A DNA stretch of 64,000 nucleotides from Calditrichaceae bacterium (lineage in GTDB: Bacteria > Calditrichota > Calditrichia > Calditrichales > JBFXGD01), in NCBI GenBank assembly GCA_050173015.1, contig JBFXLE010000005.1, positions 112,194-176,193 of the forward strand. The letters are read 5' to 3'. Both the position numbers and the translations under genes were made by a program. Shown piece after piece: positions 37,838 to 57,360 of this stretch. Position 1 is the first letter of the stretch; each line of letters opens with the position of its first letter. The notes beneath the pieces were generated by a model, which saw only the letters and a program-made list of their open reading frames with translations, ran no database searches and was not told the origin of the DNA.

Positions 37838-37849
37838 TTAAGTTAAATG

Positions 37850-37884
37850 ATGCAGGAGGCATATCTTCAGCCTCCTGCATTTTT
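37850..37884 (+). terminator. Stem-loop/terminator after nifJ
   Basis: ATGCAGGAGGC-atatcttca-GCCTCCTGCAT followed by TTTT. Confidence 0.65.
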
Positions 37885-37908
37885 AAATTATGGGGGAAAG
37901 GAGCCGAT

Positions 37909-38901
37909 ATGGATCTTTCAACAAAGTATCTAGGCTTAAATTTAAAAAATCCGATTGTACCTTCCGCGTCACCGCTATCGAATAATATTGACACAGTAAA
38001 AAAACTTGAAGACGCCGGCGCTGCCGCGGTGGTAATGTACTCATTGTTTGAAGAACAGATCACACATGAGAGTAACGAGCTTGACACCTTCTTAACCTAT
38101 GGTTCTGAAAGTTTTTCCGAAGCATTGAGTTATTTTCCTCAGCCCGAGGAGTTTAACAACCTTGACGCGGAAGAATATCTCGAACAGGTTGCCCGTCTGA
38201 AAAGCGCGGTTGATATCCCCATCATCGGGAGTTTAAACGGCGTTTCGTCCGGCGGATGGATGAAGTACGCGAAAAAAATTGAAGAAGCAGGCGCCGACGC
38301 GCTGGAATTAAATGTGTATTACATCCCGACAGATCCAAATATGACGTCGCAGCAGGTTGAAGATATTTATCTTGATAATCTTAAAACGGTGAAAAATTCC
38401 GTCAAGATACCGGTCGCGATCAAATTAAGTCCATATTTCAGCGCCTTTGCCAACATGGCATCAAGACTGGATAAGGCCGGAGCCGACGGCCTGGTACTGT
38501 TTAACCGCTTCTATCAACCGGATATAGATCTTGAAGAACTGGAGGTTGTTCCAAATCTAATCTTCAGCACATCACATGAAATGCGTCTGCCTTTGAGATG
38601 GCTGGCCATTTTGCATGGTAAAATAAAAGCCAGCCTGGCCGCGACTACAGGGATTCATGACGCGAAGGATGTTCTCAAGATGGTCATGGCCGGCGCGGAT
38701 GTGACCATGATGGCGTCAATTCTCTTAAAGGATGGAGTCGGGGAAATTTCCAAGATTCTTGCCGACCTTGAGAGATGGATGGAGGAACATGAATATAACT
38801 CCATTTCGCAGATGAAGGGATCAATGAGCTACAAGAATGTGGCGGAACCGGCGGCCTACGAACGGGCCAACTATATGAAAACACTTCAGAGTATCAAATA
38901 A
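37909..38901 (+). CDS. Dihydroorotate dehydrogenase-like flavoprotein (nifJ-associated type)
   Basis: [41 protein letters not shown]. Confidence 0.85.
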
Positions 38902-38904
38902 TCC

Positions 38905-38932
38905 AAGCCCCGCCTGTCGGGGCTTTTTTTTT
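38905..38932 (+). terminator. Intrinsic terminator
   Basis: AAGCCCCG-cctgt-CGGGGCTT followed by a T-run. Confidence 0.85.
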
Positions 38933-39027
38933 CTGATACTAAAAAATATGCATATGCGTTATTTTCGCACTATATTCTTACTCATCAAACCGCTATTTTT
39001 AATGCCATCTATTTCCTGGAGAGAAAA

Positions 39028-40002
39028 ATGTCTGTTGAAAATTCTAAACTAGGTCTGGTTCTGGGAAGCGGCGCTTCAAGAGGTTTGGCTCATATCGGCG
39101 TCATAAAAGTACTTGAAAAATATGATGTTAAAATCGGCAGCGTCACCGGTACAAGCATCGGCGCGTTGATTGGCGGACTGTACGCGTCGGGAATGACCGG
39201 AAAACAGATGGAGGAAATTGCCTGCAATACGGACTGGCGTACCGTGGCGAAAGTTTTTTTACCGACGCTATTTAGAAATACTTCTTTTGCGGGAAAATAT
39301 CTTAAGGAATTTATCACGGCTCTGGTGGGAGATACGGATTTTAAGGATTTGAATATTCCGTTTGCCTGTGTCACAACCGATTTGTTAAGCGGGAATGAGA
39401 TTATCATCGATAAGGGTTCGCTTTCGGAGGCGATTCTTGCCAGCGTCTCTCTGCCGGGTTTATTCAAGCCGGTTCAAACCAACGGCCGGCTTCTGGTGGA
39501 TGGCGGATTGGTAAATCCCCTGCCGGTGAATCTGGCAAAATATCTTGGTTCGGACAAAACGATTTCGGTAAACGTGACACCACCCATGGACCGGCCAATG
39601 AAGAAACTAAAAGTCAAATCAAATCAAAGATCATCTTTTTTTAAATTCGCGGGGAATTCAAAAATATTGTCTGATCGGTTGTCATTGTATTTTAAGATCG
39701 CGGAGAATTTTAAAGAGGAAAAATTTTTGTTCTTTGATCCGGGCCGGCCAAAAAAAGGGATGAAAGTACCCTCCTTGATGGAGACGGCAACCCAGGCGGT
39801 GGTGATCATGCAAAATCAAATCATCCGGTTAAACCTCGCTGAATCTCCGACCAATATTCTGATTGAACCGGATGTCTCACAATTCCAGCTTTTGGATTTT
39901 TCAGACGCCAAAAAGATCATCAAACAAGGCGAAATTGAGACAGAAAAGCATATCAGAAAAATTATTAAAATCATTGAAAAAGTGGATAAACTTAGGATCT
40001 AA
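39028..40002 (+). CDS. Patatin-like phospholipase
   Basis: GSGASRGLAHIG, GTSIG and DGG motifs. Confidence 0.9.
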   Translation: MSVENSKLGLVLGSGASRGLAHIGVIKVLEKYDVKIGSVTGTSIGALIGGLYASGMTGKQMEEIACNTDWRTVAKVFLPTLFRNTSFAGKYLKEFITALVGDTDFKDLNIPFACVTTDLLSGNEIIIDKGSLSEAILASVSLPGLFKPVQTNGRLLVDGGLVNPLPVNLAKYLGSDKTISVNVTPPMDRPMKKLKVKSNQRSSFFKFAGNSKILSDRLSLYFKIAENFKEEKFLFFDPGRPKKGMKVPSLMETATQAVVIMQNQIIRLNLAESPTNILIEPDVSQFQLLDFSDAKKIIKQGEIETEKHIRKIIKIIEKVDKLRI

Positions 40003-40332
40003 ATCAAGAGATTGCCCCTCTTCCGTCTAATTTTAACATCCGTATAACATTTATTTCTTTTGTCTAAAAAGTAGCGGTTTTTACGCGTCTGTTATCTTTT
40101 TGCGTCAATCGTGGAAATGTAGATACCATTATTTCTGTTTTATTAAGATATCAGCACATTATATTGACACAATCTAATACCGGATTACAAAGACAAGCAA
40201 TGGATTGGGGCGTGTCGTACCATACCCGTTTTCTTTTAACTGGACGCGTGAAATGTTTTGGCAGTAATATTTAGGATATTGGAAAAAAGTTAAACTTAAC
40301 CAAAACGGTAAATTAATATCTTCGGTAACAAA

Positions 40333-40776
40333 ATGGTAACCGTTAGAAAAGCAGAAAAATCAGATCGCGACGATTATTTAAAAATGCGAAAGCTTCTTTG
40401 GCCGGAGTGTTCCACCGACCGGCATGAGCATGAGATTGATTTGATTTTATCTTCATCGGGAGTTGTTCTTTTAGCAGAGCTGTCTCAATCAGGTGTAGTC
40501 GGTTTTGCCGAGGTATCAATTCGAAAAGACCATGTGGAAGGGACAACAAAATCACCCGTTCCCTATCTTGAAGGTTGGTATGTTTATCCTAAACACCAGG
40601 GAATGGGCATTGGAAAAGCTTTGATAAATGCAGCGGAAGATTTTGCAATAAAAATGGGATTTAATGAATTGGCAAGCGATACGGATCTGACTAATGCGAC
40701 CGCTATCGCGATTCATAAAAGAATTGGATTCACGGAAGTCGGAAGAACGGTACATTTTGTCAAAAGGATCCGGTAA
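40333..40776 (+). CDS. GNAT acetyltransferase, aminoglycoside 6'-N-acetyltransferase type I-like
   Basis: MR..LWP, GFAEVSIR.DHVEG, YLEGWYV, ELASD, H...GF.E. Confidence 0.8.
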   Translation: MVTVRKAEKSDRDDYLKMRKLLWPECSTDRHEHEIDLILSSSGVVLLAELSQSGVVGFAEVSIRKDHVEGTTKSPVPYLEGWYVYPKHQGMGIGKALINAAEDFAIKMGFNELASDTDLTNATAIAIHKRIGFTEVGRTVHFVKRIR

Positions 40777-40813
40777 GGAAAGTCCGGTATCAGGGGCGCC
40801 GGGCTTTCCGCCG

Positions 40814-40964
40814 CGTAATGCGTTAAAAAACAAACAAAACTCTTATACCTTATTTTTGTTTTCTTCAACCTTAGTAGTACAAAGACAACAAAAACACAAA
40901 ACCTCATTATTTTATTTGATTTACAAATCAGACTAACAATCTGCCATGCATTTGGTATTTAGTT
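40814..40964 (+). repeat. Diverged ~150-bp direct repeat, copy 1
   Basis: Colinear with 51408-51559; shared blocks include CCTTATTTTTGTT, AACCTTAGTAG and TTTACAAATCAGACTA. Confidence 0.85.
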
Positions 40965-41023
40965 TTTTAGAATAGCAACCATTAATTCCGGAACGGCAGG
41001 GGGATGTTTTTGCGGAAACATGG

Positions 41024-41116
41024 TAAGTTAGCCCTGTAACTTGAGAAGTTACGCCGGAAAGTTCTGAAGTTACGCCGGAAAGTTCTGAAGTTATTATCGA
41101 AACTTGGGAAGTTACA
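41024..41116. repeat. 21-bp tandem repeat (~4.5 units)
   Basis: (G/T)AAGTTA recurs at 41024, 41045, 41066, 41087 and 41108; two exact GAAGTTACGCCGGAAAGTTCT units. Confidence 0.85.
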
Positions 41117-41449
41117 GACAGTTGCTCCCATAACCTTTTTTTATAGGCTTCAGAAGATTTTAATTTGAAGCATGAGGATCATGGAAAATAACGACCTGGA
41201 GCCGGCTCAAAATACCGATGGCGAGAGATGAATATCCTCTTCATTCTCAGTTATGTATGATTATAATCCGGTTCTTGAATTTTTAAATATTTCTGTTTAT
41301 AATAATAACGTTTTTAGTTTTATCTTTTGCTTTTTCTTCAATCTTTGAAAACGATTACAATAGGGAGTTTGGCATATATTAATGACGACGTATGTTTTGG
41401 ATTTCGACTCATGCCGGTTTTAAGATATCAAACAAAGAATAATGGGGGA

Positions 41450-41599
41450 ATTACACTTGAACAGGATACAGATTTAAGGTGTTTTCAAGAGTTGCTGGGC
41501 CATAATAGTTCCAAAACTACTGAGATATATACGCACGTTTCAAAAAAGGCTATTGATAGAATCAGGAATCCGATTGATGATTTTTTTGAACAAGATTAA
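41450..41599 (+). pseudogene. C-terminal remnant of a tyrosine recombinase/integrase
   Basis: LEQDTDLRCFQELLGHNSSKTTEIYTHVS retains box II His and the catalytic Tyr. The upstream HxxR motif and N-terminal domains are missing. Confidence 0.85.
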
Positions 41600-41779
41600 T
41601 ATAATTGTAAAAGAAATATATAAACAATAGTGCTTATACCGCCAATTTAGGCGGATAAGAACGATAGAATATATACGCACGTTAGCAGCAACCATTAAAG
41701 AAAATCGAGTAATGAAAGATTTTTAAAAATTAATTGTAACATATGACTATTGTAATTCGTCAAACAAAAAAATATAATT

Positions 41780-42526
41780 ATGAGACAAATATTTATTTAT
41801 TTAATTTTGGCAGGCACAATTTCGTGTAATAATCCGAAACAAGATCAAAATTCTGAAAGTATTAATTCGCAATTGGAAATAAACGATACTATTTCAATTA
41901 GATTAATTTTACCAAGTTCTTTAGAAAATAGAAGACAAGAATTCCTTGACTATGTTAATTCCGCAAGAAAGAATATCAGAGATTTTTCTGAAAAATATGA
42001 GTGGAAGGATATAACAAAAGATGAATTCATGGATAGTGTTATTATCTTTGACAATAAAAACTATTTTAATAAAACGTTATTAAAACTTGCAGGAGCTGAC
42101 ACATCAATAAATTTGCCTGATACATATTGCGCTGCATTGGAAAAAAGAACCTTAGTTTCTGTTTCGCCTGAATTTTATTCAAAAGTATATCCCGAAGGAA
42201 TAGAAGAAAATTCTTTTGAAAAATTGCTTACACATGAAATCGCACATCAATTGCATGTGAGAATATTAAAAGGGGACGAAGAAGCCATGGGACCTATTTG
42301 GTTTTATGAAGGTTTCGCAATGTATGTGGCAAATCAATTTTCAGGATCAAATATTGTTCTTAGTAAAGAGGAAATGATTAAAATAATGGGAAACCCAGAC
42401 AGAGGCAGTTATATTAAATATAATTATATTTTTAGGTATTTTGTAAGTAAGATTTCGTTAAAAGAATTAATTTTTAAAGCAAAGAATGAAAATTTCAATG
42501 AAGAATTAATCAAATCGCTTCAATGA
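41780..42526 (+). CDS. Cassette 1: lipoprotein with gluzincin metallopeptidase motif
   Basis: Lipobox TISC; THEIAH...WFYEGFA. Confidence 0.75.
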   Translation: MRQIFIYLILAGTISCNNPKQDQNSESINSQLEINDTISIRLILPSSLENRRQEFLDYVNSARKNIRDFSEKYEWKDITKDEFMDSVIIFDNKNYFNKTLLKLAGADTSINLPDTYCAALEKRTLVSVSPEFYSKVYPEGIEENSFEKLLTHEIAHQLHVRILKGDEEAMGPIWFYEGFAMYVANQFSGSNIVLSKEEMIKIMGNPDRGSYIKYNYIFRYFVSKISLKELIFKAKNENFNEELIKSLQ

Positions 42527-42574
42527 CAATAAACAAGTCAAGCGAAATTAATGACTGAAAACAAAATGGCATGC

Positions 42575-42705
42575 TGCTAACATCGTGTATAAAACATTGG
42601 GGTATAGGTGGTTATATGAAGTTCCTGCCCCGCATCAAACTTTGGTGTTGGGGGATAGTTCCGTAGCCCGCAATCCCCAACGTTTCATACACGTAACCGT
42701 TAGGC
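42575..42705 (+). repeat. attC-like site 1
   Basis: TGCTAAC...GTTAGGC; arms CGTGTATAAAACATTGGGG / CCCCAACGTTTCATACACG. Confidence 0.88.
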
Positions 42706-42751
42706 AAAATTTAAAATTGACTACCAGATAATAAATTTGACCGTGAAATAG

Positions 42752-44017
42752 ATGAAAAATAAAAGTCAAAAGAATAAACTAAATATAGTTTATAATATAG
42801 ACGCTAGAAGAATTCTGGATAAAATACCTGAAGAAGTAAAAGTTGCAACGACAATTACATCTCCACCTTATTTTGAAATGAAAGATTATGATTCTGACAA
42901 TCAGATTGGTTACGGACAAACTTATGATGAATATTTAGAAGACCTTAAATCAATTTTTGCGGGTGTTTTTCAAGTTACAAAGGACGATGGAACTTTATGG
43001 ATTGTTATTGATACATTCAAAAGAAATAATCAAGTAGTTCCATTACCTTTTGATTTATCTAATAAATTAAAAGAAATTGGTTGGTTGCTCCAAGATATAA
43101 TAATTTGGAAAAAAGATAAAACTGTGCCTTGGTCATCTAATGGTTTTATGCAACGTAAATTTGAGTACATTCTATTCTTTTCAAAATCTGAAAATTATAA
43201 AACCAATAAAGATAATGTTAGAGTTTACGATACTACTCAGCTAAAAAAATGGTGGGTTAAATACCCTGAAAGATATAATCCCAGAGGAAAAGCACTTGAA
43301 GAAGTTTGGGAATTTCCAATACCAACTCAAGGCTCTTGGGGTGACCAATATATACGACATTTTTGTCCTCTACCGCAGAGTATGGTAGCTACCATGATTC
43401 AAATTAGTTCAGATGAAAATGATATTGTCCTGGATCCTTTTGCAGGAAGTGGTACTGTATTGACCCAATCTGCCTATATGAAAAGAAATTATCTAGGATT
43501 TGAACTTAATGAGAGCTACATAAGAATGTTTGAAAATTATCTTAAAAAAACATTCAAAAAGAATAGGAAAGAATACGAGGCATCTGGGCAAATTATTGAA
43601 CAGGACTTATTTGAAAAAAGAATTCTTGATTTAAGATCTTTAAAATACGCCAGAGTATTGATTAATAACTTTGAAAAGGCAACAAATATCAGCGATTTTA
43701 AAATATTTGTAAATCCGAAAGGAAGTAGTACAGCTAAAAACAAATTAATAAGAGTTGAATATCAAATTATTGGAGAAATTGACAACCGTGTATTTAAAGA
43801 TTTAATCAACCAATTAATCCTTAAACCACCTTTATCCAAATATGGAATTGAACCCTCTTTTATCTTCAAAGAATCGAAAAAGTATAATTTAAAAAAGCAT
43901 TACGGATATTCGAAAACGAATACTTATTCATTTATTAAAAATCCAAACTTTGATTCTTCAATGATCAGAGTAATAAGTGATATATGTGTTGATCTTAACG
44001 AAAATGATTACTTATAG
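42752..44017 (+). CDS. Cassette 2a: beta-class amino DNA methyltransferase (SPPY, likely N4-C) with C-terminal extension
   Basis: TSPPY precedes DPFAGSGT; IIW.K, HFCPLP; ~150 extra C-terminal residues. Confidence 0.88.
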   Translation: MKNKSQKNKLNIVYNIDARRILDKIPEEVKVATTITSPPYFEMKDYDSDNQIGYGQTYDEYLEDLKSIFAGVFQVTKDDGTLWIVIDTFKRNNQVVPLPFDLSNKLKEIGWLLQDIIIWKKDKTVPWSSNGFMQRKFEYILFFSKSENYKTNKDNVRVYDTTQLKKWWVKYPERYNPRGKALEEVWEFPIPTQGSWGDQYIRHFCPLPQSMVATMIQISSDENDIVLDPFAGSGTVLTQSAYMKRNYLGFELNESYIRMFENYLKKTFKKNRKEYEASGQIIEQDLFEKRILDLRSLKYARVLINNFEKATNISDFKIFVNPKGSSTAKNKLIRVEYQIIGEIDNRVFKDLINQLILKPPLSKYGIEPSFIFKESKKYNLKKHYGYSKTNTYSFIKNPNFDSSMIRVISDICVDLNENDYL

Positions 44018-44025
44018 TTATTGGT

Positions 44026-45810
44026 ATGGCGAAAATAAAAAGCAAAAAAAGAACCACTAGAAAAAAGTTGTCTCCACAAGAGAAAGCTATTTTAAAGGAA
44101 AAACGAGATCAGCGAAACGAAATATCAACGATTTTAAAAAATATTGGTTTTTATAGACTGCCATTTATTGATGGCAAGCATTTTGAATATGAACAAAAAA
44201 AGACTGAAATGGATGATGTTTTTATCAATCAAAACATCATTTTAATTACTGAATACACTGTAGGAGATCCAAAAGATCATTTGTTTTCCAAAAAAATATT
44301 TTACGATAAGATTAACCAAGATAAACGAAAATTTATTGACTTCCTTCTTTCAGAAGATAAGCTAAAGAGTTTTCAAAATTATTATTCAAATAATATACAA
44401 GGTAATTATTCGAAGAATGAATTGCATCTTCAAATTTTATATTGTTCTAAAAAGTCAATTTCTGACGATCATAAAAATTTAGTTGACCATGTGATTTTTT
44501 TTGATTATCACATTGTTCAATACTTTAAAAGTCTAACAAAAGTTATTAAGCAATCGAGTAAATATGAATTTCTTGATTTTATAAAAATACCTTTTGAAGA
44601 GTTTGGATCAAATATTAAAAACTCATCAGTTTCATCTTCTAATAAATTTTCGGGACATATTTTGCCAGAAGAAAAAAGTTCATTTGATGAGGGTTATAAA
44701 ATTGTTTCATTTTATATCGATGCAGAATCTTTGTTAAAAAGATCTTATGTTTTGAGACAATCTGGTTGGCGCGATCTTGAAAATGTTGGTCATTATCAGA
44801 GAATGTTTGAAGCGAAAAAAATATCAAGTATGCGAAGATATTTAACCGAAAAAAATAGAGTTTTTATAAACAATATTATTTCAACAATCTCAATCGATAA
44901 AATCAAACTGTATGATAGGAAAGGTAAATTGCTATCGATTAGTGAAAATGGTCAATTTATTGGTGATAATGCAACAGAAGTCACACCTGCATTAATTGAA
45001 ATAAATGATGAATGCAATATTATTGGTTTAATAGATGGTCAACATCGAACTTATGCTTATCATGAGGGTGATGACCAATTTGAAGAGACTATTTCAAAAC
45101 TCCGGAAAATTCAAAACCTACTTGTAACCGGTATTTTATTTCCAAAAACTGAGAACAAGCAAACAAGATTAAAATTTGAAGCAAATCTGTTTTTAGAAAT
45201 AAATTCAAATCAAACCAATGTTAAATCTCAACTAAAACAAGAAATTGAATTAATGATTAGTCCATTTTCTACAGTTGCAATTGGAAAGAGAATATTACTA
45301 GGTTTGAATAAAAGTGGACCATTGGGAAATTTAATTGAGCAGTACTGGTATGAAAAAGGGAAAATTAAAACTGCTTCTATTGTTAGTTTTGGATTAAAAC
45401 CTTTAATAAAAATTGAAGATGTAAAGGCTAAGGACAGTATATATTCTATTTGGAAAAATCCTGACAAGCAAAAATTAAAAATAAAAGACAATAAAGAATT
45501 TGATTTGTTGGATGAATACGTGAATTTCTCGGTTGAAAAGATTAGAGATATATTCATTGCCCTAAAAATGACATTGGCATCAGATCAGTGGGAAACATAT
45601 AGACCAAGTAATCCTAGAGGAACTTTAACTGTTACATTTATTAATGGCATTTTGAATGTTTTAAGATTACTAATTGAAAATAATAAGGTGTCGACAATTG
45701 ATGATTATAAAATAAAGCTGAATGGTATTGATAAATTTGATTTTAAGAAATTTAAATCAAGTCAATATAGAAAAATGGGTGAAGAGATTTACAATAAATA
45801 TTTTCGTTAA
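44026..45810 (+). CDS. Cassette 2b: DGQHR-domain protein
   Basis: YQR, FINNII, LIDGQHR and LFLEINSNQT.V motifs; additional ~200-aa N-terminal domain. Confidence 0.85.
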   Translation: MAKIKSKKRTTRKKLSPQEKAILKEKRDQRNEISTILKNIGFYRLPFIDGKHFEYEQKKTEMDDVFINQNIILITEYTVGDPKDHLFSKKIFYDKINQDKRKFIDFLLSEDKLKSFQNYYSNNIQGNYSKNELHLQILYCSKKSISDDHKNLVDHVIFFDYHIVQYFKSLTKVIKQSSKYEFLDFIKIPFEEFGSNIKNSSVSSSNKFSGHILPEEKSSFDEGYKIVSFYIDAESLLKRSYVLRQSGWRDLENVGHYQRMFEAKKISSMRRYLTEKNRVFINNIISTISIDKIKLYDRKGKLLSISENGQFIGDNATEVTPALIEINDECNIIGLIDGQHRTYAYHEGDDQFEETISKLRKIQNLLVTGILFPKTENKQTRLKFEANLFLEINSNQTNVKSQLKQEIELMISPFSTVAIGKRILLGLNKSGPLGNLIEQYWYEKGKIKTASIVSFGLKPLIKIEDVKAKDSIYSIWKNPDKQKLKIKDNKEFDLLDEYVNFSVEKIRDIFIALKMTLASDQWETYRPSNPRGTLTVTFINGILNVLRLLIENNKVSTIDDYKIKLNGIDKFDFKKFKSSQYRKMGEEIYNKYFR

Positions 45811-45820
45811 AAAAAACTTT

Positions 45821-45950
45821 GCCTAACAATGTATAAAAATAATAGACGAGACAGTAGTAAATTCAAGGCTTGTCGCTCGCTTCAACTTCATCTCGGTTTG
45901 ACAGGAAAGTAGTACGCAGTCGGCCACTATTCTTATACTAACCATTAGCA
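45821..45950 (+). repeat. attC-like site 2 (core GTT mutated to ATT)
   Basis: GCCTAAC-aatGTATAAAAATAAT...ACTATTCTTATAC-taacc-ATTAGCA. Confidence 0.8.
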
Positions 45951-46026
45951 GCAAAGTTGACAAATCCATCTACTAAAACTATAATCTAACTTGATTAATG
46001 AATAAATATGAAAAATATAGAAATCA

Positions 46027-47472
46027 ATGAATAAAAGAAAAACACGATATTCTTACATCTATTTGTTATTTGCATTTATTTCACTTTTCTTTTTTAATGG
46101 TAAATGGATTTTACCAATTGCCGCATTTTTAGCACCAATATTTGTAATTCGTTTTTTACGGTTTCAAAAACCATTTAAAGGATTTCTGATAATTGTTCTT
46201 GTTGGTTGGGTGTCAAACATATTCGTCTGGAAGGGAATGATGCCCATGTCAGGATTTTTCTACTACCTGGTTTCTTTTATGATGAGCTTATTTACTTCGC
46301 TGACATTTTTGTTAGATCGAATTTACACTCAAAAATTTAAGGGAATCATTTCGACACTCATATTTCCTTCTGTTTATGTGACAATGGATTACATTACCAT
46401 ATTAACTAATCCTTCAGGTTCATACGGAACTTTGGTTCACACTCAGTCATCTTTACCCTTATTACAGCTTGTCTCCATAACTGGCATTTTTGGGGTAATA
46501 TTTTTAATTACGTGGACTGCATCAATTATAAATTGGCTTTGGGACAATCATTTTGAGAAAAATAAAGTTTATTCATCGTTTTGGGGATTTGGTATTCCTT
46601 TTCTCGCGGTAATTTTATGGGGGCAAATAAGATTGTCTTCAACAATTGATTCACAAACGGTAAGAATAGCTTCAATTAATAGCACTAAAACAGAGTATCA
46701 TCATCGTATGACAACGAATTTTGACTCTTTAGTTGAAAAGGCAAACCAGGGATTTTTAGAAAATTGTGAAATAGCGGCTTCATCAGGTGCCAAAATAATA
46801 TTTGGACGAGAAACAATCATCAGTTTGTCCGTTGATACTGAAACTAACTTCATCGAAAAAGCTAAAACAATTGCAATACGTGACAGTATTTACATTGGAA
46901 TTCCCATCAATTTAATACCTAAGGAAAACTCCAATGAAAATCCTGAAAACAAAATAACCTGGATTTCTCCAACAGGAAAAATACTATTTACATATCATAA
47001 GGCAAAGCCAACTTATCCGGGTGAATGTGATGATGGAAATGGAATTATAAAATATTTTGATTCGCCTTACGGAAGAATTGGTTCAGCCATTTGTTTCGAT
47101 ATGGATTTTCCCTCCTTGATTAGTCAAACCGGTAAAATGGATATTGACATTATGTTAGTGCCGGGTAGCGACTGGGAAGATATTTCGCCTTATCATACCT
47201 ACGTGGCATCCATAAGAGGCATTGAAAATGGTTTTAACATGGTTAGGTCAACATTCAAAGGATTTTCTGCTTCCTTTAATTATAAGGGGCAACTTTTATC
47301 GTCCAATGACTTTTTTAAGACCAACGAAGTAATTTTATATTCTGATGTGCCTATTAAAGGACAAAAAACGATATATTCATTTTTAGGAAATTATTTTGCG
47401 TGGCTCTGTATTATATTCTTTCTCTCAATGAGTTTTGTTTTCTTTAAAAATAAATGGATTAATAAGAAGTAG
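46027..47472 (+). CDS. Cassette 3: membrane-anchored nitrilase/CN-hydrolase (Lnt-like)
   Basis: Multi-TM N-terminus, LLQLVSITGI; triad contexts FGRE, YHKAKP and ICFDMDF. Confidence 0.8.
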   Translation: MNKRKTRYSYIYLLFAFISLFFFNGKWILPIAAFLAPIFVIRFLRFQKPFKGFLIIVLVGWVSNIFVWKGMMPMSGFFYYLVSFMMSLFTSLTFLLDRIYTQKFKGIISTLIFPSVYVTMDYITILTNPSGSYGTLVHTQSSLPLLQLVSITGIFGVIFLITWTASIINWLWDNHFEKNKVYSSFWGFGIPFLAVILWGQIRLSSTIDSQTVRIASINSTKTEYHHRMTTNFDSLVEKANQGFLENCEIAASSGAKIIFGRETIISLSVDTETNFIEKAKTIAIRDSIYIGIPINLIPKENSNENPENKITWISPTGKILFTYHKAKPTYPGECDDGNGIIKYFDSPYGRIGSAICFDMDFPSLISQTGKMDIDIMLVPGSDWEDISPYHTYVASIRGIENGFNMVRSTFKGFSASFNYKGQLLSSNDFFKTNEVILYSDVPIKGQKTIYSFLGNYFAWLCIIFFLSMSFVFFKNKWINKK

Positions 47473-47487
47473 GAATAAAAACCCAGC

Positions 47488-47618
47488 TGCTAACAATGTA
47501 TAAAAAAATAGGCGGTTTAGTAATAAATTCAAGGGCTGTAGCCCGATTCAACTTTCGTTGTATCTTGAAAGTGAAGTGCATTAAAATCCCGCACTACGCA
47601 TAGCCGAAACCGTTAACC
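47488..47618 (+). repeat. attC-like site 3 (apparently chimeric)
   Basis: TGCTAAC...GTTAACC; left part resembles site 2, right arm resembles site 4. Confidence 0.78.
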
Positions 47619-47640
47619 TTTAATAAATACCCGAAATCAA

Positions 47641-48456
47641 TTGAAAAAAATATTTACATCAATAGTCATACAGGACAAAGAAGAAAAGAAAGAGTATCGA
47701 TGGCAGGTTTCGATAACGGTACTCATTCTGTTTATTTTCGGTTCAGTCATAAATATACCATTTAGCAGAGAAGTCAAAAAATTAAACATAGAAGCCGGCA
47801 AGACAGGCATAAACCTGAATGAATCAATTTTTACTGACTTAACTACCATCGGGATTAGCAGTCTGATATTAGGTGCTATATTAGTTTTTATCGGTTTATG
47901 GGTTTCTTCAAGAGCCAACCTGGGAGCGCCGCTAATTGCAAGATTCTTTTCTAAAAAACCAATTAACATAATAAAGAGAGAAGCCATCCTGTCAAGTATT
48001 CTTTTAGCGGCAATGGTGGCTTTAATTCTATTGGGTTTATTTGAAATTCAAAAAGAGTTCTATCCGGTTGCGAATAAACTTTCACGCCCATCCAAACCTT
48101 TTTATGCTCTTGTGTCATTCTCTGCCGGAATTACTGAAGAGATAATGTTTAGATTAGGATTAATGTCGTTCATAATAACGGTGATTCAATTTTTAAAAAA
48201 AGTTGAAAATCCATCGAATAAAATTGTCTGGACAGGCATATTAATTTCCGCGATATTTTTTGGGCTTATCCACCTTCCCTTATCGAAAAATTTTGTAGAG
48301 TTAACACCTTTTACAATTAGCGTGACAATGATTGGAAATTTAATAACAGGGTCAACATTTGGCTGGATATTTTGGAAACGAGGATTATTAGTCGCGATTT
48401 TATCACATGTTGTGTTTGATTTAGTTTTTCATGTAATAGGAACACCATACGCATAA
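47641..48456 (+). CDS. Cassette 4: CPBP (CAAX/Abi) intramembrane metalloprotease
   Basis: TEEIMFRLG, FGLIH, AILSH..FD motifs; TTG start. Confidence 0.85.
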   Translation: MKKIFTSIVIQDKEEKKEYRWQVSITVLILFIFGSVINIPFSREVKKLNIEAGKTGINLNESIFTDLTTIGISSLILGAILVFIGLWVSSRANLGAPLIARFFSKKPINIIKREAILSSILLAAMVALILLGLFEIQKEFYPVANKLSRPSKPFYALVSFSAGITEEIMFRLGLMSFIITVIQFLKKVENPSNKIVWTGILISAIFFGLIHLPLSKNFVELTPFTISVTMIGNLITGSTFGWIFWKRGLLVAILSHVVFDLVFHVIGTPYA

Positions 48457-48465
48457 AATAACAAT

Positions 48466-48597
48466 GGCTAACATTGGCTATAATTCATTGGGGTTTTGTG
48501 CCACACCATAATAAAAGTATATATCAAACGACTGATTTCTCAGCGGAATAATCCTCGGGATGATTCCACAACGAAATCATAGCCGATGCCGTTACCC
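48466..48597 (+). repeat. attC-like site 4
   Basis: GGCTAAC-atTGGCTATAATTCATTG...CAACGAAATCATAGCCGA-tgcc-GTTACCC. Confidence 0.82.
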
Positions 48598-48756
48598 GCA
48601 AGCAAATGTCAAGCGGAGCTCATAAATAATCGTGCATTTGTAAGCTTTTACGTTGGTATGACTTGTTGCGTATGACCAATCGCGCGTATTAATAAACCAG
48701 TCAGGCGGTCTTCTTTAAATCAAACGATCAATTTCCTGTTTTAAACCAAATCCGCG

Positions 48757-48884
48757 CGCTAACAATCCATAAAAATCATCGCTAAACTTCTGCAATTTTA
48801 GAAATTTCTTTTTCTCTTTAATCGTTATGTCTTTTAGTTATGTTTCTGCTTTATTCCTAACGCCTTTGATGCTCAATGTTAGCA
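48757..48884 (+). repeat. attC-like site 5 (degenerate)
   Basis: CGCTAAC...GTTAGCA, 128 bp; arms only weakly complementary. Confidence 0.6.
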
Positions 48885-48935
48885 GGAAGGCTGGAAGCCA
48901 CGAAAGAAACGATAAACTTTAGATCTATAACTTAA

Positions 48936-51125
<2,190 letters not shown>

Positions 51126-51132
51126 ACCCGGC

Positions 51133-51265
51133 TGCTAACACCATATATAAATAATGGCGGGGCTTGCAGCGTATTAAAGCGTTCTGCCCCGCCATTAACT
51201 TTTGTGGCAATTTGACGGGATTCAGCCCCGAAGTCCGCCACTACACATATGCGTAACCGTTAAAT
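51133..51265 (+). repeat. attC-like site 6
   Basis: TGCTAAC-acCATATATAAATAATGGCGG...CCGCCACTACACATATG-cgtaacc-GTTAAAT. Confidence 0.85.
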
Positions 51266-51407
51266 TGATTATCAATATTGCGTATATCAAGGACATTTAC
51301 CCGGAAAAAATACGCGGTTCCGCTCTTTTAATTGCATCAATTCGTTCTGGTTTATAGGTTTTCATTGAGTCCTACGCCGATTTGCTCACCTCCGGTTAAA
51401 CCCAATC

Positions 51408-51559
51408 CGTAATGCGCCGAATTACTTAGCAAAACTCTTAGACCTTATTTTTGTTATCTTTAACCTTAGTAGAATAAACGCGACAAAAATACAAAACCTT
51501 ATTATCTTATCCGCTTTACAAATCAGACTAGCAATCTTTCATACATTTTGTATCCAGCT
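51408..51559 (+). repeat. Diverged ~150-bp direct repeat, copy 2
   Basis: Colinear with 40814-40964. Confidence 0.85.
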
Positions 51560-51700
51560 CGTCGTTCTCTCCCTGAACAAACCCAAATCGTCCGGGGAAT
51601 AGAAACCCGCCTATCGATTGGCGACAAAATAGAGCAAAGCATAAATTGAGCATAGTAAACGGGAAAAAGATTACGAGCCTGACCAAAAATATATAAACAG

Positions 51701-52765
51701 ATAATAATATCATCCCTTTGGGGTTAGATATAATCAATGTACCATTTAGCTACAATAATTTCAGCCCTTCGGTATTAAATAAACCAAATCAAATCCCGAA
51801 AGAATAAAAATATCTATTTGAATGGCTTGAAGAATGATGCCACCCCTCCGGGGTTTGGTATAATCGATAAACCATATATCTATAATAATATCAGCCCTTC
51901 GGGCTTATAAAACCAAACCAAATCCCGATGGGATGACGTGATTATAGGTGAAATAACCAACAAACTAAAATCCCAAAGGGGTGACATGATTATAGGATGA
52001 GATATTCACAAAATATAAACCCCGAAGGGGTGAGATTATTATAAAGGGGAGATTATTGTAGAGATGAGATAACCACAAAATCCAAAATCCCGAAGGGATG
52101 ATATGATTATAGATGTGACAAGATTGAAAAAAACAAACCACAAAATCCAAACCCCGAAGGGGTGTCATTATTATAGAGATAATGTGATTATAGGATCAAA
52201 TAATCACAAAATCCAAAACCCCGAAGGGGTGACATGATTATAGGATGAGATATTCACAAAATATAAACCCCGAAGGGGTGAAATTATTATAGAGATGAGA
52301 TAACCACAAGATCAAAAACCCCGAAGGGGTGACATGATTATAGATGTGACAAGATTGAAAAAAACAAACCACAAAATCCAAACCCCGAAGGGGTGACATT
52401 ATTATAGAGATAATGTGATTATAGGATCAAATAATCACAAGATCCAAAATCCCGAAGGGATGATATGATTATAGATGTGACATGATTGAAAAAAACAAAC
52501 CACAAAATCCAAACCCCGAAGGGGTGCCATAATTATAGAGATAATGTGATTATAGGATCAAATAATCACAAAATCCAAAATCCCGAAGGGATGACATGAT
52601 TATAGATGTGACATGAATGTAAAAAACAAACCACAAAATCCAAACCCCGAAGGGGTGACATGATTATAGATGTGAAATGGTTATAAATGTGAGATGATTA
52701 TAAAGAACGAACAACAATATCCCGAAGGGTTGACATTATTATAGAAGTAACATTATTATAGGGTT
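51701..52765. repeat. Left REP-like palindrome array (4 reverse + 14 forward copies)
   Basis: Unit AAA(C/T)CCCGAAGGG(G/A)TGACAT(G/T)ATTATAG with a period mostly of 48-68 bp. Confidence 0.95.
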
Positions 52766-52812
52766 GACGTGGTTATGGGTGATGTGTTTTATAAAAATCC
52801 AGGGAGGACGAT

Positions 52813-53277
52813 ATGTCCGGAACGTATTCACAAATCTACATACATATTGTTTTCGCCGTAAAAGGCCGTGGAAATATCATATCCAAAACATGGCAAAACG
52901 AATTGCATAAATATCTAGCAGGTATCATTACCAACAAAGATCAAAAATCAATTATTGTAAACGGGGTGTCAGACCATGTTCATGTGTTTGTTGGCTTAAA
53001 GCCTTCAATGCCTGTTTCAGATTTGGTTCGAGATATAAAAAACAACTCAACCAATTTTATAAATAAAAAAAATTTTGTGAGCGAAAAATTTGCATGGCAA
53101 GAAGGTTACGGCGCTTTTTCATATGGTCATACACAAATTGAACAGGTATATAATTACATATTAAATCAGGAAGAACATCATCACAAAAAAACATTCAAAG
53201 AAGAATACATGGAATTTCTTCGAAAAAACGAAATAGAGCATAATGAAAAATATCTATTTGAATGGCTTGAAGAATGA
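52813..53277 (+). CDS. tnpA: IS200/IS605-family HUH Y1 transposase (REP-associated type)
   Basis: YIHIVFAVKGR, DHVHV (HUH), WQEGYGAFS, YILNQEEHH (Y1); GGAGG RBS; no tnpB. Confidence 0.95.
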   Translation: MSGTYSQIYIHIVFAVKGRGNIISKTWQNELHKYLAGIITNKDQKSIIVNGVSDHVHVFVGLKPSMPVSDLVRDIKNNSTNFINKKNFVSEKFAWQEGYGAFSYGHTQIEQVYNYILNQEEHHHKKTFKEEYMEFLRKNEIEHNEKYLFEWLEE

Positions 53278-54080
53278 TGCCACCCCTTTGGGGTTTGAGA
53301 AAGACTATAATCCATCTAGCTATAATAATATCAGCCCTTCGGGCTTAAAAAAAACCAAACCAAAATCCCGAAGGGGTGACATGATTATAGGATGAGATAT
53401 TCACAAAATATAAACCCCGAAGGGGTGAGATTATTATAGAGATAATGTGATTATAGGATCAAATAATCACAAGATCCAAAATCCCGAAGGGATGATATGA
53501 TTATAGATGTGACATGATTGAAAAAAACAAACCACAAAATCCAAACCCCGAAGGGGTGCCATAATTATAGAGATAATGTGATTATAGGATCAAATAATCA
53601 CAAAATCCAAAATCCCGAAGGGATGACATAATTATAGATGTAAGACGATTATAAAGAACAAACAACGAAGACCAAAATCCCGAAGGGATGATATGATTAT
53701 AGATGTGACAAGATTGAAAAAAACAAACCACAAAATCCAAACCCCGAAGGGGTGTCATTATTATAGAGATGAGATAACCACAAGATCAAAAACCCCGAAG
53801 GGGTGACATGATTATAGATGTGACAAGATTGAAAAAAACAAACCACAAAATCCAAACCCCGAAGGGGTGACATTATTATAGAGATAATGTGATTATAGGA
53901 TCAAATAATCACAAGATCCAAAATCCCGAAGGGATGATATGATTATAGATGTGACAAGATTGAAAAAAACAAACCACAAAATCCAAACCCCGAAGGGGTG
54001 CCATTATTATAGAGATAATGTGATTATAGGATCAAATAATCACAAGATCCAAAATCCCGAAGGGATGACATTATTATAGA
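53273..54080. repeat. Right REP-like palindrome array (2 reverse + 12 forward copies)
   Basis: Same unit and spacer classes as the left array. Confidence 0.95.
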
Positions 54081-54081
54081 T

Positions 54082-54153
54082 GAAGAAAAATATTTGAAAT
54101 CAGTACGTGGTGATAATTACATTGATAATAAAAAAAAGCAAACCGATATATGA
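54082..54153 (+). pseudogene. Possible 3' remnant of an isoprenylcysteine carboxyl methyltransferase-family gene
   Basis: EEKYLKSVRGDNYIDNKKK resembles the EE..L....G..Y..Y C-terminal motif; starts abruptly at the array end. Confidence 0.4.
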
Positions 54154-54270
54154 CAACAAATTAAACGCGAACGCGTAACAGCGTTTGCGCCGGCTGATAA
54201 TTACGAAACCCGCAATCTTAAACCATTTATACACGTAAACATTTACCAATCAAAAAAGACCGGGAAGAAC

Positions 54271-54936
54271 ATGACACTAAAAGAAACACTTGAACAGCTT
54301 AAATCGCTAAGCGATGAAAAGACAAGAGCCTACAATATTAAGAATGGTGTAGGCGAAAATCAGTATGGTGTAAAACTCGGCGACCTCCGAAAGGTGGCCA
54401 AAAAGATAAAGACAAACCATGGCCTGGCCATTGAATTATGGGAAACAGAGAACTTCGACGCGCAAATGCTGGCAATGCTCCTCATCAAACCAGATGAACT
54501 TAAAGCCGGTGAATTGGATGCGATGGTGCGCTCTGTGAAATATACCCGGGTGGCGGACTGGCTGAACTCCTATGTGGTGAAACTCCACCCTGACAACGAA
54601 ACACTACGCCGGAAATGGATGAAGGACGCCAACCCCATGGCAGCCCGCGCAGGCTGGAACCTGACTTCCCAGCGTGTAGTAAAGAATCCTGAAATGGTAG
54701 ATATACCGGCATTACTTGACCGTATTGAAAGCGAATTGGCTGCAGCCGCTCCGGAAGCGCAGTGGACCATGAACTTCTGTCTTGCCGAGATAGGCATCAA
54801 CCATTCCGGGTACCGGCAGAGGGCCATTGATATTGGAGAAAAGTTGGGTGTGTATCGCGACTATCCCGTTTCAAAAGGTTGTACATCACCATTCGCCCCA
54901 ATTTGGATAAAAGAAATAGTTAGCAGACAAGAGTAA
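54271..54936 (+). CDS. DNA alkylation repair protein (AlkD-like HEAT repeat)
   Basis: GVKLGDLRKVAKKIK.NH.LA.ELW, QWTMNFCLA.IGI, KGCTSPFAPIWI. Confidence 0.8.
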   Translation: MTLKETLEQLKSLSDEKTRAYNIKNGVGENQYGVKLGDLRKVAKKIKTNHGLAIELWETENFDAQMLAMLLIKPDELKAGELDAMVRSVKYTRVADWLNSYVVKLHPDNETLRRKWMKDANPMAARAGWNLTSQRVVKNPEMVDIPALLDRIESELAAAAPEAQWTMNFCLAEIGINHSGYRQRAIDIGEKLGVYRDYPVSKGCTSPFAPIWIKEIVSRQE

Positions 54937-54945
54937 AAAAACCTG

Positions 54946-55078
54946 GCCCGACAACGGCTCAGAAAACATACGGATTGATGACATAGATGGAAGCATTTTC
55001 GATCTAACAAAAACCATGTACACGACTGAAAAATACGTGATCTTCAACCCGCGCGTTGCTAAACCGGGACCGTTATGC
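54946..55078 (+). repeat. attC-like site 7 (degenerate left core)
   Basis: GCCCGAC-aaCGGCTCAGAAAACATACGGATTGA...TCAACCCGCGCGTTGCTAAACCG-ggacc-GTTATGC, 133 bp. Confidence 0.65.
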
Positions 55079-55113
55079 TGAAAAAACGGAATAGTGCATT
55101 CACATTCCAAAAG

Positions 55114-57360
55114 TTAAATACTAAATAGGTATTGAAATTTCATAAAAAATTGTCGTGAGGTCTGCTCCCACCCGGCTTCGGTATAATCACGATAGTTATG
55201 CGATGAGCCCATATAAAATATGGTAAAGGGATTTAATTTATAACTCAATAACGGTTCTACAGAGAACCTGCTGTTGAAGTCGTTGTATTGAAAGACCAAT
55301 CGTAAAAACAACTCGCGCGTGAACTGCAAATTATTTCTCAGTCTGAAGATATACCCGCTAAATACTTTTTCATCATTGTCAAGCCGGTACATATCTGAGA
55401 AACGGACGGCGGGTTCAATAATCCATCTTTGAGCCGGTTTAATGGTACCCCAAAATTCAAAATTGGTACCTCTTCCTTTTACGGGATCATCATCAAAACG
55501 GTTGGCAATCATCCGCCCGGTTTGAAGCCAAAATCCGAGATGCAGCGGATCTGAAAAATCGGTATCAAATTCCATTTCAAAGCGGTTAATATCGGAAAAT
55601 AGCTTATCCTTGAATCGCTCGCTGTTGAATAAATAGGCGACACTAAAAAAGGTCTGTTTTTTAAAACGAAAAGAAAGTGATGGATTTATCCACTCGTCTT
55701 TTATGATACCATCATAATTCCAGACTCTTCCTGTACTGACACTTGGATTGATCCGGTTCAGATATTTGTTGTCAAAATAGAAGGTATATCCGTTCCACAC
55801 GGAGGCCTGTCTGCGGTTACTGCTGGTAACAAAACCGTTATCTGCCCTAAATGTGGGTGATGTTTGCCTGAAATCAATATCAAAATTCCAGTGACGGGCA
55901 TCTCTTTCAAAACTAGCGTAAACCGCGTTTCCGTTATATTCTTCTCCGTCAAAGGATGCGGAATAATTCCCGTCATCAAACCGGATACCATTCAATTCGC
56001 TTGTTCTGGATGTATCGTTTGGTTCAGCGGTTCTGCTGGTCACCGCCTGAACTTCAAGCCGGTAATTGTCAAGGAGTCGGAGGGATCCGTCAATTCCAAT
56101 GGTGGTGCCGGATCCGCCACCGTCATAGCGCCGGTCCGTAATAATGGTTCCGAGATATGAATCTTCCAGGAAAGTTTGTTTAAATCTTAAGATATTGGAT
56201 ACACTGCGCTCCATCGGTACGAAGGAGCTCCGTTCCTCAAAAGGGAGAATCAGTGGTGTTGTTTCGTCGACGGCTGTGAGGAAGGCGAGTGTGGAACGCC
56301 GCCAGCGCCCGATAACTTTGCCCGCGGCAACCGGATCATTTATTGAGCGGGTGTAAACCACGTCAACCCATGTGGAGAATAAATCACTTCCCTCCAGGAA
56401 AAAAGGTCTTTTTTCGGAGAAACTCAACGCAAACGGCTGATTAATATCAATTTTGTCGGCATCGGATTCAACCTGGCTGAAATCGGGATTGTAGCTCCCT
56501 TCAACGGTAAGGCTTGGAGTGATGGTCCATTTAATTCCCAGGGACGCGTCACCATTAATGTCATGATTTTTGAAGTCGGAATCAGGATCAGATGGATCCT
56601 CAAGCGTAGCGGTCTGATTTGTAATCAAAGAAGGCAATAATTCAACTGATCTGCCGGATTCCACGTTTTTTATATTTTTCAAACTCCCGTATTGGCAAAG
56701 AAAGCAAGGATTATCCCGGTCAATTGCCGCCCACGAGTATGTGTTTCGGCTTTCCCGGGGATGTGTTCTCCAGAAATTGACGCGCCAGACCTGTTCATCG
56801 CGATCAGGGAAACGCAGGCTGGTAAACGGAATAGCCATTTCGACCTGATAGCCGGTTTCGGTAATTTTACCGTTGCTGGAAAATATGAGATCAAATCCGT
56901 CATCCTCGCCTGCGCTGCTTGAATAACGTGTATCACCCTGAACACCCAGAGGATTAGAAAATATAAAATATGCCCAGCTTGCATCGCCATAAGTATCTAT
57001 GAGCAACCCGATATAATCATCCGACCAAATCTGATCCCGATCCCTGAGAGAAGCTCTTATTTTCCGCGGATCATCTTCGCAGAGAAACGCCACGTAAAGG
57101 TTGGTGTCATCGTATGTCATAAGAACTTCGGTTTTTACGGGAGGTTTTGTCTGATCGCCCGGTTCAGTCTCACTAAAATTATTAGCGCGGATGGCATGCG
57201 ACCAGCCGTCATCCGATAAATCCCCATCAATTATGATATTTCCCTGCAGGCGGGTCAGTGATAATTCAGGCGCGATATTCGGCCTAAAGGTCTCAGGTTT
57301 TTGTATGTCTCCGGCAAAAATAAATATTGGAATCAAACAAAGGAAAACAATATACTTCAT
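55114..57360 (-). CDS. CBM9-like + DUF5916-type exported/outer-membrane protein
   Basis: Signal peptide, IDGDLSD..W, YDDTNLYVAF, EMAIPF.SLRF, NPDFSQVESD, EKRPFFLEG, C-terminal KFQYLF. Confidence 0.75.
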   Translation of the reverse strand: MKYIVFLCLIPIFIFAGDIQKPETFRPNIAPELSLTRLQGNIIIDGDLSDDGWSHAIRANNFSETEPGDQTKPPVKTEVLMTYDDTNLYVAFLCEDDPRKIRASLRDRDQIWSDDYIGLLIDTYGDASWAYFIFSNPLGVQGDTRYSSSAGEDDGFDLIFSSNGKITETGYQVEMAIPFTSLRFPDRDEQVWRVNFWRTHPRESRNTYSWAAIDRDNPCFLCQYGSLKNIKNVESGRSVELLPSLITNQTATLEDPSDPDSDFKNHDINGDASLGIKWTITPSLTVEGSYNPDFSQVESDADKIDINQPFALSFSEKRPFFLEGSDLFSTWVDVVYTRSINDPVAAGKVIGRWRRSTLAFLTAVDETTPLILPFEERSSFVPMERSVSNILRFKQTFLEDSYLGTIITDRRYDGGGSGTTIGIDGSLRLLDNYRLEVQAVTSRTAEPNDTSRTSELNGIRFDDGNYSASFDGEEYNGNAVYASFERDARHWNFDIDFRQTSPTFRADNGFVTSSNRRQASVWNGYTFYFDNKYLNRINPSVSTGRVWNYDGIIKDEWINPSLSFRFKKQTFFSVAYLFNSERFKDKLFSDINRFEMEFDTDFSDPLHLGFWLQTGRMIANRFDDDPVKGRGTNFEFWGTIKPAQRWIIEPAVRFSDMYRLDNDEKVFSGYIFRLRNNLQFTRELFLRLVFQYNDFNSRFSVEPLLSYKLNPFTIFYMGSSHNYRDYTEAGWEQTSRQFFMKFQYLFSI

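Follow-up and report, generated by a model that had tools for sequence, protein, structure and literature searches.

A 64,000-nucleotide (nt) stretch of a Calditrichaceae bacterium genome (GenBank assembly GCA_050173015.1, contig JBFXLE010000005.1, positions 112,194 to 176,193; hereafter the window) very likely holds the fossil of an integron-like gene-capture platform, composed of a tyrosine recombinase of a distinct family, an attI-like site and a series of cassettes (Table 1). Six attC-type hairpin sites between positions 42572 and 51268, all on the + strand, divide about 9.6 kb into co-oriented cassettes. All open reading frames (ORFs) from 41780 to 51125 are likewise on the + strand, with palindromic sites of ~135 nt between them that start with ...TAAC and end with GTTA.... 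An initial annotation of positions 41450 to 55078, made from the sequence letters, had proposed a non-canonical integron-like array downstream of a tyrosine recombinase remnant and co-oriented with it. The remnant is real and has this orientation, and the array is borne out as far as 51268, but the right third of that range (51269-55078) is not part of it.

Cassette boundaries and site structure

The initial annotation had read the start of each cassette as complementary to that cassette's own end, and not to the other half of the site now adjoining it, and had quoted three motif pairs, all of which we found where it placed them. We took the 7 nt after each GTT and scored their match to the reverse-complemented 7 nt ahead of the next AAC, counting the GTT of the attI-like site first. 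The proposed pattern was recovered in the window, with own-cassette complementarity at 7, 7, 6, 5, 2 and 5 of 7 positions and same-site complementarity at 3, 3, 3, 3 and 4 of 7. The comparison was extended to 88 consecutive site pairs, drawn from 128 full-length matches to a covariance model of the sites (R1) in the window, the genome's second array and related loci. Own-cassette complementarity averaged 5.66/7 and reached at least 6 in 64 of the 88 pairs, as against a mean of 2.85/7 for the same-site control (at least 6 in 5/88) and of 2.36/7 for random pairs (at least 6 in 1.7%). AAC/GTT cores were present in 116 of the 128 matches. Complementarity of this kind lies far beyond chance and is the classical footprint of circular cassettes entering at G|TT.

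R1 was built from 26 sites, comprising the six of the window, four of the second array of the genome and 16 from three related loci. In this alignment 87.4% of cells form standard pairs, arranged as AAC/GTT plus a 16-pair L stem that is interrupted twice, compared with 26-37% when the 3' partners were slid by 1-3 columns and 63.7% when partners were shuffled. Compensatory changes on both sides were found in 15 of the 16 L-stem pairs. Searching positions 36000-60000 with R1 and filters off returned six sites at 57-112 bits, all on the + strand, and no further significant match in that interval (next best E = 0.026). The six belong to the R1 seed and match by construction; independent support comes from the site structure itself and from R1 matches in loci outside the seed. 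No Rfam family matched within the window. A sequence-only nhmmer profile of the six sites, superseded by the covariance model, had found the genome's second array and nothing at the intI loci of relatives, and two AAC...GTT hairpin finders were dropped, one having found a single site and the other being noisy (52 matches versus 26-40 in shuffled sequence).

Measured from AAC to GTT, the window sites have an outer length of 120-125 nt, which becomes 134-139 nt once the 7-nt boxes are included; among 107 sites aligned to the model the left spacer has 3 nt and the right spacer 4-6 nt. These values are near those of the initial annotation (~128-133 bp, with spacers of 3 versus ~5 nt). A second class of sites, of ~200 nt, has the same ends and a longer middle; it makes up 29 of the 128 full-length matches (170-209 nt) and occurs in loci L041, L048, L056, L066, L072, L082 and L103.

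In canonical attC sites, extrahelical bases that are reported to be read by the IntI insertion set the choice of strand. Extrahelical L-box bases of this type are not the rule here. The two arms of the 107 aligned sites cover 18 and 18 model positions, and in 88 of these sites column 250, the sole insert column that is commonly filled, is without an extra base. The mostly bulge-free arms carry two conserved mismatches, with A (107/107) opposite C (106/107) at the first and A (98/107) opposite C (94/107) at the second. These top-strand A·C mismatches become G·T on the bottom strand, which predicted folding gives as the more stable strand in 85 of the 107 sites (mean 1.58 kcal/mol). We infer that the A·C mismatches mark the recombining strand in place of bulged bases.

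The recombinase family and its downstream arrays

In the integron-integrase and Xer models the remnant covers the final 43 positions; it retains only the last histidine and the catalytic tyrosine motif. Over its 46 residues it is 93% identical to residues 234-279 of P0002, a protein of 280 amino acids (aa), as against just 40-52% identity to the C-termini of classical IntI proteins of relatives. It thus derives from a family without the IntI-specific insertion, and the initial view of it as an integron integrase does not stand. A protein search with the remnant, restricted to longer proteins, gave 2350 matches at E <= 0.001. The best of these were 76-93% identical over 75-80% of the query and mostly 278-282 aa long, with Ignavibacteria, Deferribacteraceae, Desulfuromonas and Desulfothermus among their source names; family members are 76-85% identical though their records name different phyla.

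Of the family, three full-length proteins exceed the NF040815 cut-off (XerA type; 227-245 versus 220 bits) and fall short of that of TIGR02249 (integron integrase; 204-223 versus 265, in two stretches), and the best solved-structure matches are XerA (4a8e, 5hxy). In the comparison with IntI4 (2a3v), query residues 7-171 align to chain residues 8-172 and query residues 205-273 to chain residues 249-317. There are consequently 33 query residues where IntI4 has 76, so the IntI-specific insertion, for which the initial annotation had advised checking full-length homologues, is absent. As only the last 46 residues survive in the window, the insertion test rests on these 93%-identical relatives. A rough tree sets 12 classical IntI proteins across a supported branch from the family and two Xer-like genes. 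About ten relatives have intact genes of a more distant subfamily (298 aa, 45-50% identity to P0002). Its weak sites lie at L126 14187-14252 and L127 361-495 (relatives G002 and G007), in a layout opposite to that of the main family.

Scanning one genome per species gave at least 600 matching stretches, at least 581 of them confirmed, and the best 80 were kept; these loci are mostly from Bacteroidota, with some from Ignavibacteria-type genomes. In self-comparison, most loci with room downstream of the gene proved to have direct repeats of 125-200 nt there. At E <= 0.01, R1 had 130 matches, every one on the + strand, over the window, the 80 loci and two loci on contig C9 of the window's genome. 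Although the search around the 80 loci took in ~580 kb of upstream and 281 kb of downstream sequence, 117/117 of their sites lie downstream of the gene and are co-oriented with it. A site is present in 38 of the 80, and among loci with at least 1 kb of downstream sequence 36/42 have a site and 23 have two or more. Between the stop codon and the first site, a GTT of attI type is found in 35/38 loci (window included), mostly 29-130 nt after the stop codon, with 6-7/7 complementarity to the first detected cassette end. The initial proposal of a class whose array lies 3' of the integrase accordingly holds for the layout, which is a rule of the family. It does not hold as a novelty of orientation, co-orientation alone being already known, nor for the enzyme, which is not IntI; the absent IntI insertion is the more unusual point.

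Two loci with open family reading frames, L075 (259 residues) and L041 (282 residues), preserve what appear to be traces of cassette movement. Each has at attI, in first position, a duplicate of a cassette further down (100% identical in L075 and 99.8% in L041); the duplicate is delimited on either side by the conserved CGTT / GTT core and includes the downstream site. Such first-position copies are the product expected of excision and re-insertion at attI, and as they carry the downstream site, the cassette travels with that site, as in integrons. A crossover at the AAC side, by which a cassette would move with its upstream site, had been raised by the divergence of runs X2 and X9 at 45824 (see below) and is ruled out by these duplicates.

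In an intact platform, a ~280-aa tyrosine recombinase gene would be followed, at 30-130 nt from its stop codon, by an attI-like site and then by co-oriented cassettes, each ending in a hairpin site of ~135 nt or, for some, ~200 nt. A circular cassette, presumably by an integron-type mechanism, would undergo recombination between the conserved G|TT of its hairpin and the attI-like site, and would land beside the recombinase gene with its own site included. The sequences point to the family recombinase as the probable catalyst of this recombination, and the sites differ in step with it, having mostly equal, bulge-free arms and two A·C mismatches. In the present genome, repeat-rich DNA would have reduced the gene to its last 46 codons, and a block of repetitive extragenic palindrome (REP) arrays with a REP-associated transposase (RAYT) gene would have destroyed the far end of the array. 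With the gene truncated and the far end destroyed, the six cassettes are most likely frozen.

The decayed copy in this genome

The end of cassette 1 pairs at all seven positions with the 7 nt after the attI-like GTT, and the attI-like site is 85-92% conserved in four other remnant-plus-site units of the genome. Upstream of the remnant, the repeat DNA that occupies 40777-41455 is taken to be what cut the recombinase gene short. Five family remnants were found in the genome, namely that of the window, three decayed copies with stop codons on contig C9 and one on contig C43. R1 sites number 15; six lie in the window, seven on C9, and C43 and C33 have one apiece. The second array of the genome, on C9, contains two of the remnant-plus-attI units, each directly after a site and with a common 75-nt leader, which recurs behind the array's last site, where the sequence then diverges (L009 2760-3130, L009 7243-7575, L010 3112-3445 and L010 11048-11120). 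This pattern may reflect segmental duplication of platform-plus-array units or the fusion of several arrays. The genome (97.5% complete) has no IntI, the best score being 87.6 bits versus the cut-off of 265, and it has no intact member of the recombinase family, the best candidates being two Xer-like genes of 32-34% identity; the array is therefore probably frozen.

Table 1. Features of the recombinase remnant, the cassette array and the adjoining repeat block, in window coordinates.
Feature	Position	Strand	Description
Stretch replacing the 5' four fifths of the recombinase gene	40777-41455		Repeats dispersed on other contigs, including the 124-nt repeat 40835-40958
Recombinase remnant	41456-41593, stop 41597-41599	+	Last 46 codons of a tyrosine recombinase gene
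attI-like site	41600-41690	+	GTT at 41681-41683, 82 nt after the stop codon
Cassette 1	41682-42699	+	1018 nt; ORF 41780-42526, 248 aa
Site a1	42572-42708	+	R1 112 bits
Cassette 2	42700-45944	+	3245 nt; two genes
Cassette 2, gene 1	42752-44017	+	Type II N6/N4 DNA methyltransferase
Cassette 2, gene 2	44026-45810	+	DGQHR/DpdB-like protein
Site a2	45818-45953	+	R1 98 bits; R' core ATT, not GTT
Cassette 3	45945-47612	+	1668 nt; Lnt-like carbon-nitrogen hydrolase, ORF 46027-47472
Site a3	47485-47621	+	R1 86 bits
Cassette 4	47613-48591	+	979 nt; Rce1/CAAX-type membrane protease, ORF 47641-48456
Site a4	48463-48600	+	R1 69 bits
ORF-less unit	48592-48887	+	287 nt; closes with weak site a5
Site a5	48754-48887	+	R1 57 bits; poorly paired
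Cassette 6	48879-51259	+	2381 nt; catalase-peroxidase KatG, ORF 48948-51125, TIGR00198 1263 bits
Site a6	51130-51268	+	R1 97 bits; last significant site
REP-type repeat arrays	51676-54110		Units of ~64-67 nt with CCCCGAAGGGG hairpin, on both sides of the RAYT gene
RAYT gene, IS200-like Y1 transposase	52813-53277		154 aa; Y1_Tnp E 3.4e-26
Right half of an attC-type site	54196-54245	+	48 nt; core ATT; 75% similarity to the a1 right half
DNA alkylation repair gene	54271-54936	+	Followed by the tail of the variable island, to 55025

Comparison with relatives bears on the initial annotation's remark that an invariant gene order would speak against its reading; the order is not invariant. A same-genus genome, G001 (94% complete, 320 contigs), retains 36000-40228 (88%) and 55026-55900 (86%), both flanks stopping at contig ends. 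At E <= 1e-10 it has none of 40229-53600, the cassettes included, apart from weak matches to a paralogue and to repeats. Runs X2 and X9, whose contigs come from studies other than the likely source, contain the flanks and cassettes 3-6 in pieces with about 1-6% other letters, and have depth 0 over 41804-45607. Stretches without contig cover in X2, X3 and X9 were counted only if bridged by a contig. In one X2 contig, 41539 is followed by 1497 other letters and then by 45824, the position at which an X9 contig also begins to match, so that in close strains the two attI-proximal cassettes differ and the distal cassettes are common. Both runs share the junction of repeat DNA and remnant (contigs spanning 41066-41539 and 40308-41438), from which it follows that the change took place after the death of the gene, or by another route. 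Contigs of run X3 have an a1-type core (42574-42703) flanked by other sequences.

The cargo of the array is varied. The ORF of cassette 1 had no family match; read by eye, its N-terminus is lipoprotein-like and an HExxH motif is present. The gene pair of cassette 2 is restriction-modification or defence-like. The katG gene is complete (725 aa) in a 2.4-kb cassette flanked by a5 and a6; it is present in runs X2 and X9 and has no DNA match in the same-genus genome. A GNAT acetyltransferase gene (40333-40776), placed after the conserved left flank and before the remnant of the recombinase, scores 137.1 bits with NF043067 (aminoglycoside 6'-N-acetyltransferase), just below the cut-off of 140. Its region is missing in the same-genus genome and present in runs X2 and X9.

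Beyond site a6, two arrays of 22-25 REP-like units each flank the RAYT gene. A transposase gene between REP arrays is the layout described for REP-associated transposases. Contigs of run X1 include several length variants of the REP arrays, with joints such as 51919->53243 and 51995->53349. The block sits within the former array, and the attC-type half site to its right has lost its left half to it. Two further sites that had been proposed in this region were rejected, 54943-55081 being not significant under R1 (6.2 bits, E 4.3) and 54112-54248 likewise not significant and a half site by similarity only. The right border of the variable island is at 55026, where synteny with the same-genus genome resumes, and a deletion variant on a contig of run X1 joins 52763 to this same position. 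A 124-nt direct repeat (40835-40958 and 51430-51553, 85% identical) brackets the remnant and the array, and weaker copies of it occur on contigs C4, C10 and C13, some of them in tandem.

Alternative explanations and known systems

Several observations weigh against reading the window as a fossil member of a family-wide capture system. Within the array, one of the six units, that from a4 to a5 (287 nt, no ORF), fails the complementarity test at 2/7, and a5 itself is poorly paired. R1 was seeded from four genomes, and the counts over the 107 sites are descriptive, alignment A4 having been fitted to a model structure that we supplied. Sites and loci are mutually related, so that counts overstate independence, and as the best 80 of at least 581 loci were kept, site types that are weaker or of another kind are under-represented. 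No site is found in six of the 42 loci with downstream room, and locus L113 bears ~60-nt repeats of its own that R1 missed. In the 298-aa subfamily, two of four loci have one weak R1-type site each, placed upstream and divergent. The tree does not place the family clearly relative to Xer, and its bootstrap had not settled. Finally, the X2/X9 breakpoints (41438/41539 on the left and 45824 on the right) are off the G|TT expected of an attI x attC crossover.

These breakpoints bear most directly on the initial suggestion that the array now depends on a recombinase acting in trans; on such a reading it would still be mobile, served by a Xer-type enzyme of the genome or by one borne on a mobile element. 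X2 and X9 differ in the two attI-nearest cassettes in spite of the shared truncated junction, and integrons add cassettes at the attI end, so turnover seems to have continued after the truncation; the remnant is moreover still 93% identical to intact genes, and its loss may be recent. Yet dependence on such an enzyme finds no support in the genome, which has no intact family member and no IntI and whose two best Xer-like genes are distant (32-34%), and none of the breakpoints coincides with the attI GTT; they fall within the remnant and on the left edge of a2. Exchange by homologous recombination, with five copies of the remnant and 15 attC sites as partners in the genome, fits them and is at least as likely a cause as a trans-acting recombinase. 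Contigs are incapable of showing rare circles. We regard continued mobility in trans as unlikely.

It is very improbable that the window is the remnant of a classical 'reverse' integron with a true, co-oriented IntI of the Treponema kind, or a cluster of attC sites without an integron integrase (CALIN) served by a classical IntI. With the short family the remnant shares 93% identity, with IntI C-termini at most 52%. R1 finds one site in 12 classical intI loci versus 117 sites in 80 short-family loci, and IntI is lacking in the window's genome. Such an origin would draw on the abundance of candidates, the TIGR02249 cut-off being passed in 30 of 61 genomes (60 relatives plus the window's own, G000, which has none), on the existence of co-oriented classical integrons, as described in passages of PMC4909258, and on the single R1-type site at the classical intI locus L034, which is in the usual divergent position. 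Hardly conceivable is that the palindromes are intergenic structural repeats, such as terminators or REP-like elements, rather than recombination sites. Their start-end complementarity changes by cassette, exact cassette duplicates are bounded by GTT, their link to one recombinase family is strictly downstream and co-oriented, and strains differ at the level of cassettes, all of which is unexpected for terminators or REP. Covarying non-consensus pairs (e.g. AGGCAAA) exclude an artefact of a conserved consensus, even if other repeats abound in the genome (this region has REP arrays too) and only a1 and a6 fold clearly better alone than shuffled sequence (z = -2.3 and -2.1).

As in sedentary chromosomal integrons such as the Vibrio cholerae superintegron, an attI-type site lies by the recombinase gene, the co-oriented and promoterless-looking cassettes are closed by imperfect palindromes with AAC...GTT cores, the crossover signature is at G|TT, the sites are long (120-135 nt) and array-specific, first-position cassettes are duplicated and content varies among strains. 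Unlike in those integrons, the recombinase lacks the IntI-specific insertion and scores as XerA type, the array lies 3' of the gene and co-oriented with it, and the sites are mostly bulge-free with two conserved A·C mismatches. Resemblance to Xer/dif systems (archaeal XerA, XerC/D) is found in the best sequence and structure matches and in similar size and domain layout. Xer, in contrast, resolves chromosome dimers at one short dif site, whereas the family heads cassette arrays with long hairpin sites and is multi-copy or decayed in some genomes. In the window's genome its five decayed copies occur beside two separate Xer-like genes.

Of the features by which integrons are recognised, the paired AAC...GTT/L boxes, the G|TT cassette boundaries and an attI by the gene (here 3', not 5') are all present. 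An intI divergent from the array is not, given the 117/117 downstream, co-oriented sites. Treponema IntIs bear the additional domain of IntI. The full-length relatives lack this domain, which lies near patch III (IntegronFinder; Messier & Roy). An integrase gene oriented as the array is shared with the 'reverse' integrons of Treponema denticola, as passages of PMC4909258 describe them, and an attI immediately downstream of the gene with archaeal integrons, whose IntIs, according to portions of bioRxiv 10.1101/2022.02.06.479319, have the additional domain, unlike the present family. The window also resembles a CALIN in being an attC cluster without a recognisable IntI (parts of Cury et al. 2016, PMC4889954), and differs from one in that a specific non-IntI recombinase family heads the arrays.

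Passages of PMC4889954 state that recombinases near attC without intI_Cterm 'are not IntI', and portions of that paper and of bioRxiv 10.1101/2022.02.06.479319 hold that integron recombination needs the IntI-specific domain, by which tools define integrons. Standard integron searches would file arrays such as these as CALIN or miss them. From what parts of PMC9024848 relate, Bacteroidetes had earlier yielded In0 only, to which IntegronFinder 2.0 added one complete integron, in Salinibacter ruber. A full-text literature search (including sections of PMC8618304, PMC3575428 and bioRxiv 10.1101/2024.07.02.601686) found no array headed by a recombinase without the IntI domain in the portions covered, a result limited by the supplementary tree and tables of PMC4889954, which could include family members. 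As far as we have searched, the system as a whole is undescribed, the present copy being a fossil.

On balance it seems slightly more probable than not that integron-like capture which arose or survives without the IntI insertion, with the strand chosen by A·C / G·T mismatches of a bulge-free hairpin and not by extrahelical bases, is widespread and active in Bacteroidota, Ignavibacteria-type bacteria and others, the window being a dead member. In itself the window has a modest yield, as a decayed copy that records the cargo of an array and its death. The family enzyme would offer a route to study how folded sites are recognised without the extra helix, and the encoding of strand choice in the sites would become directly testable. 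A large cassette pool in environmental Bacteroidota would moreover have been overlooked, of which the methylase/DGQHR pair and the whole katG gene of the window give examples.

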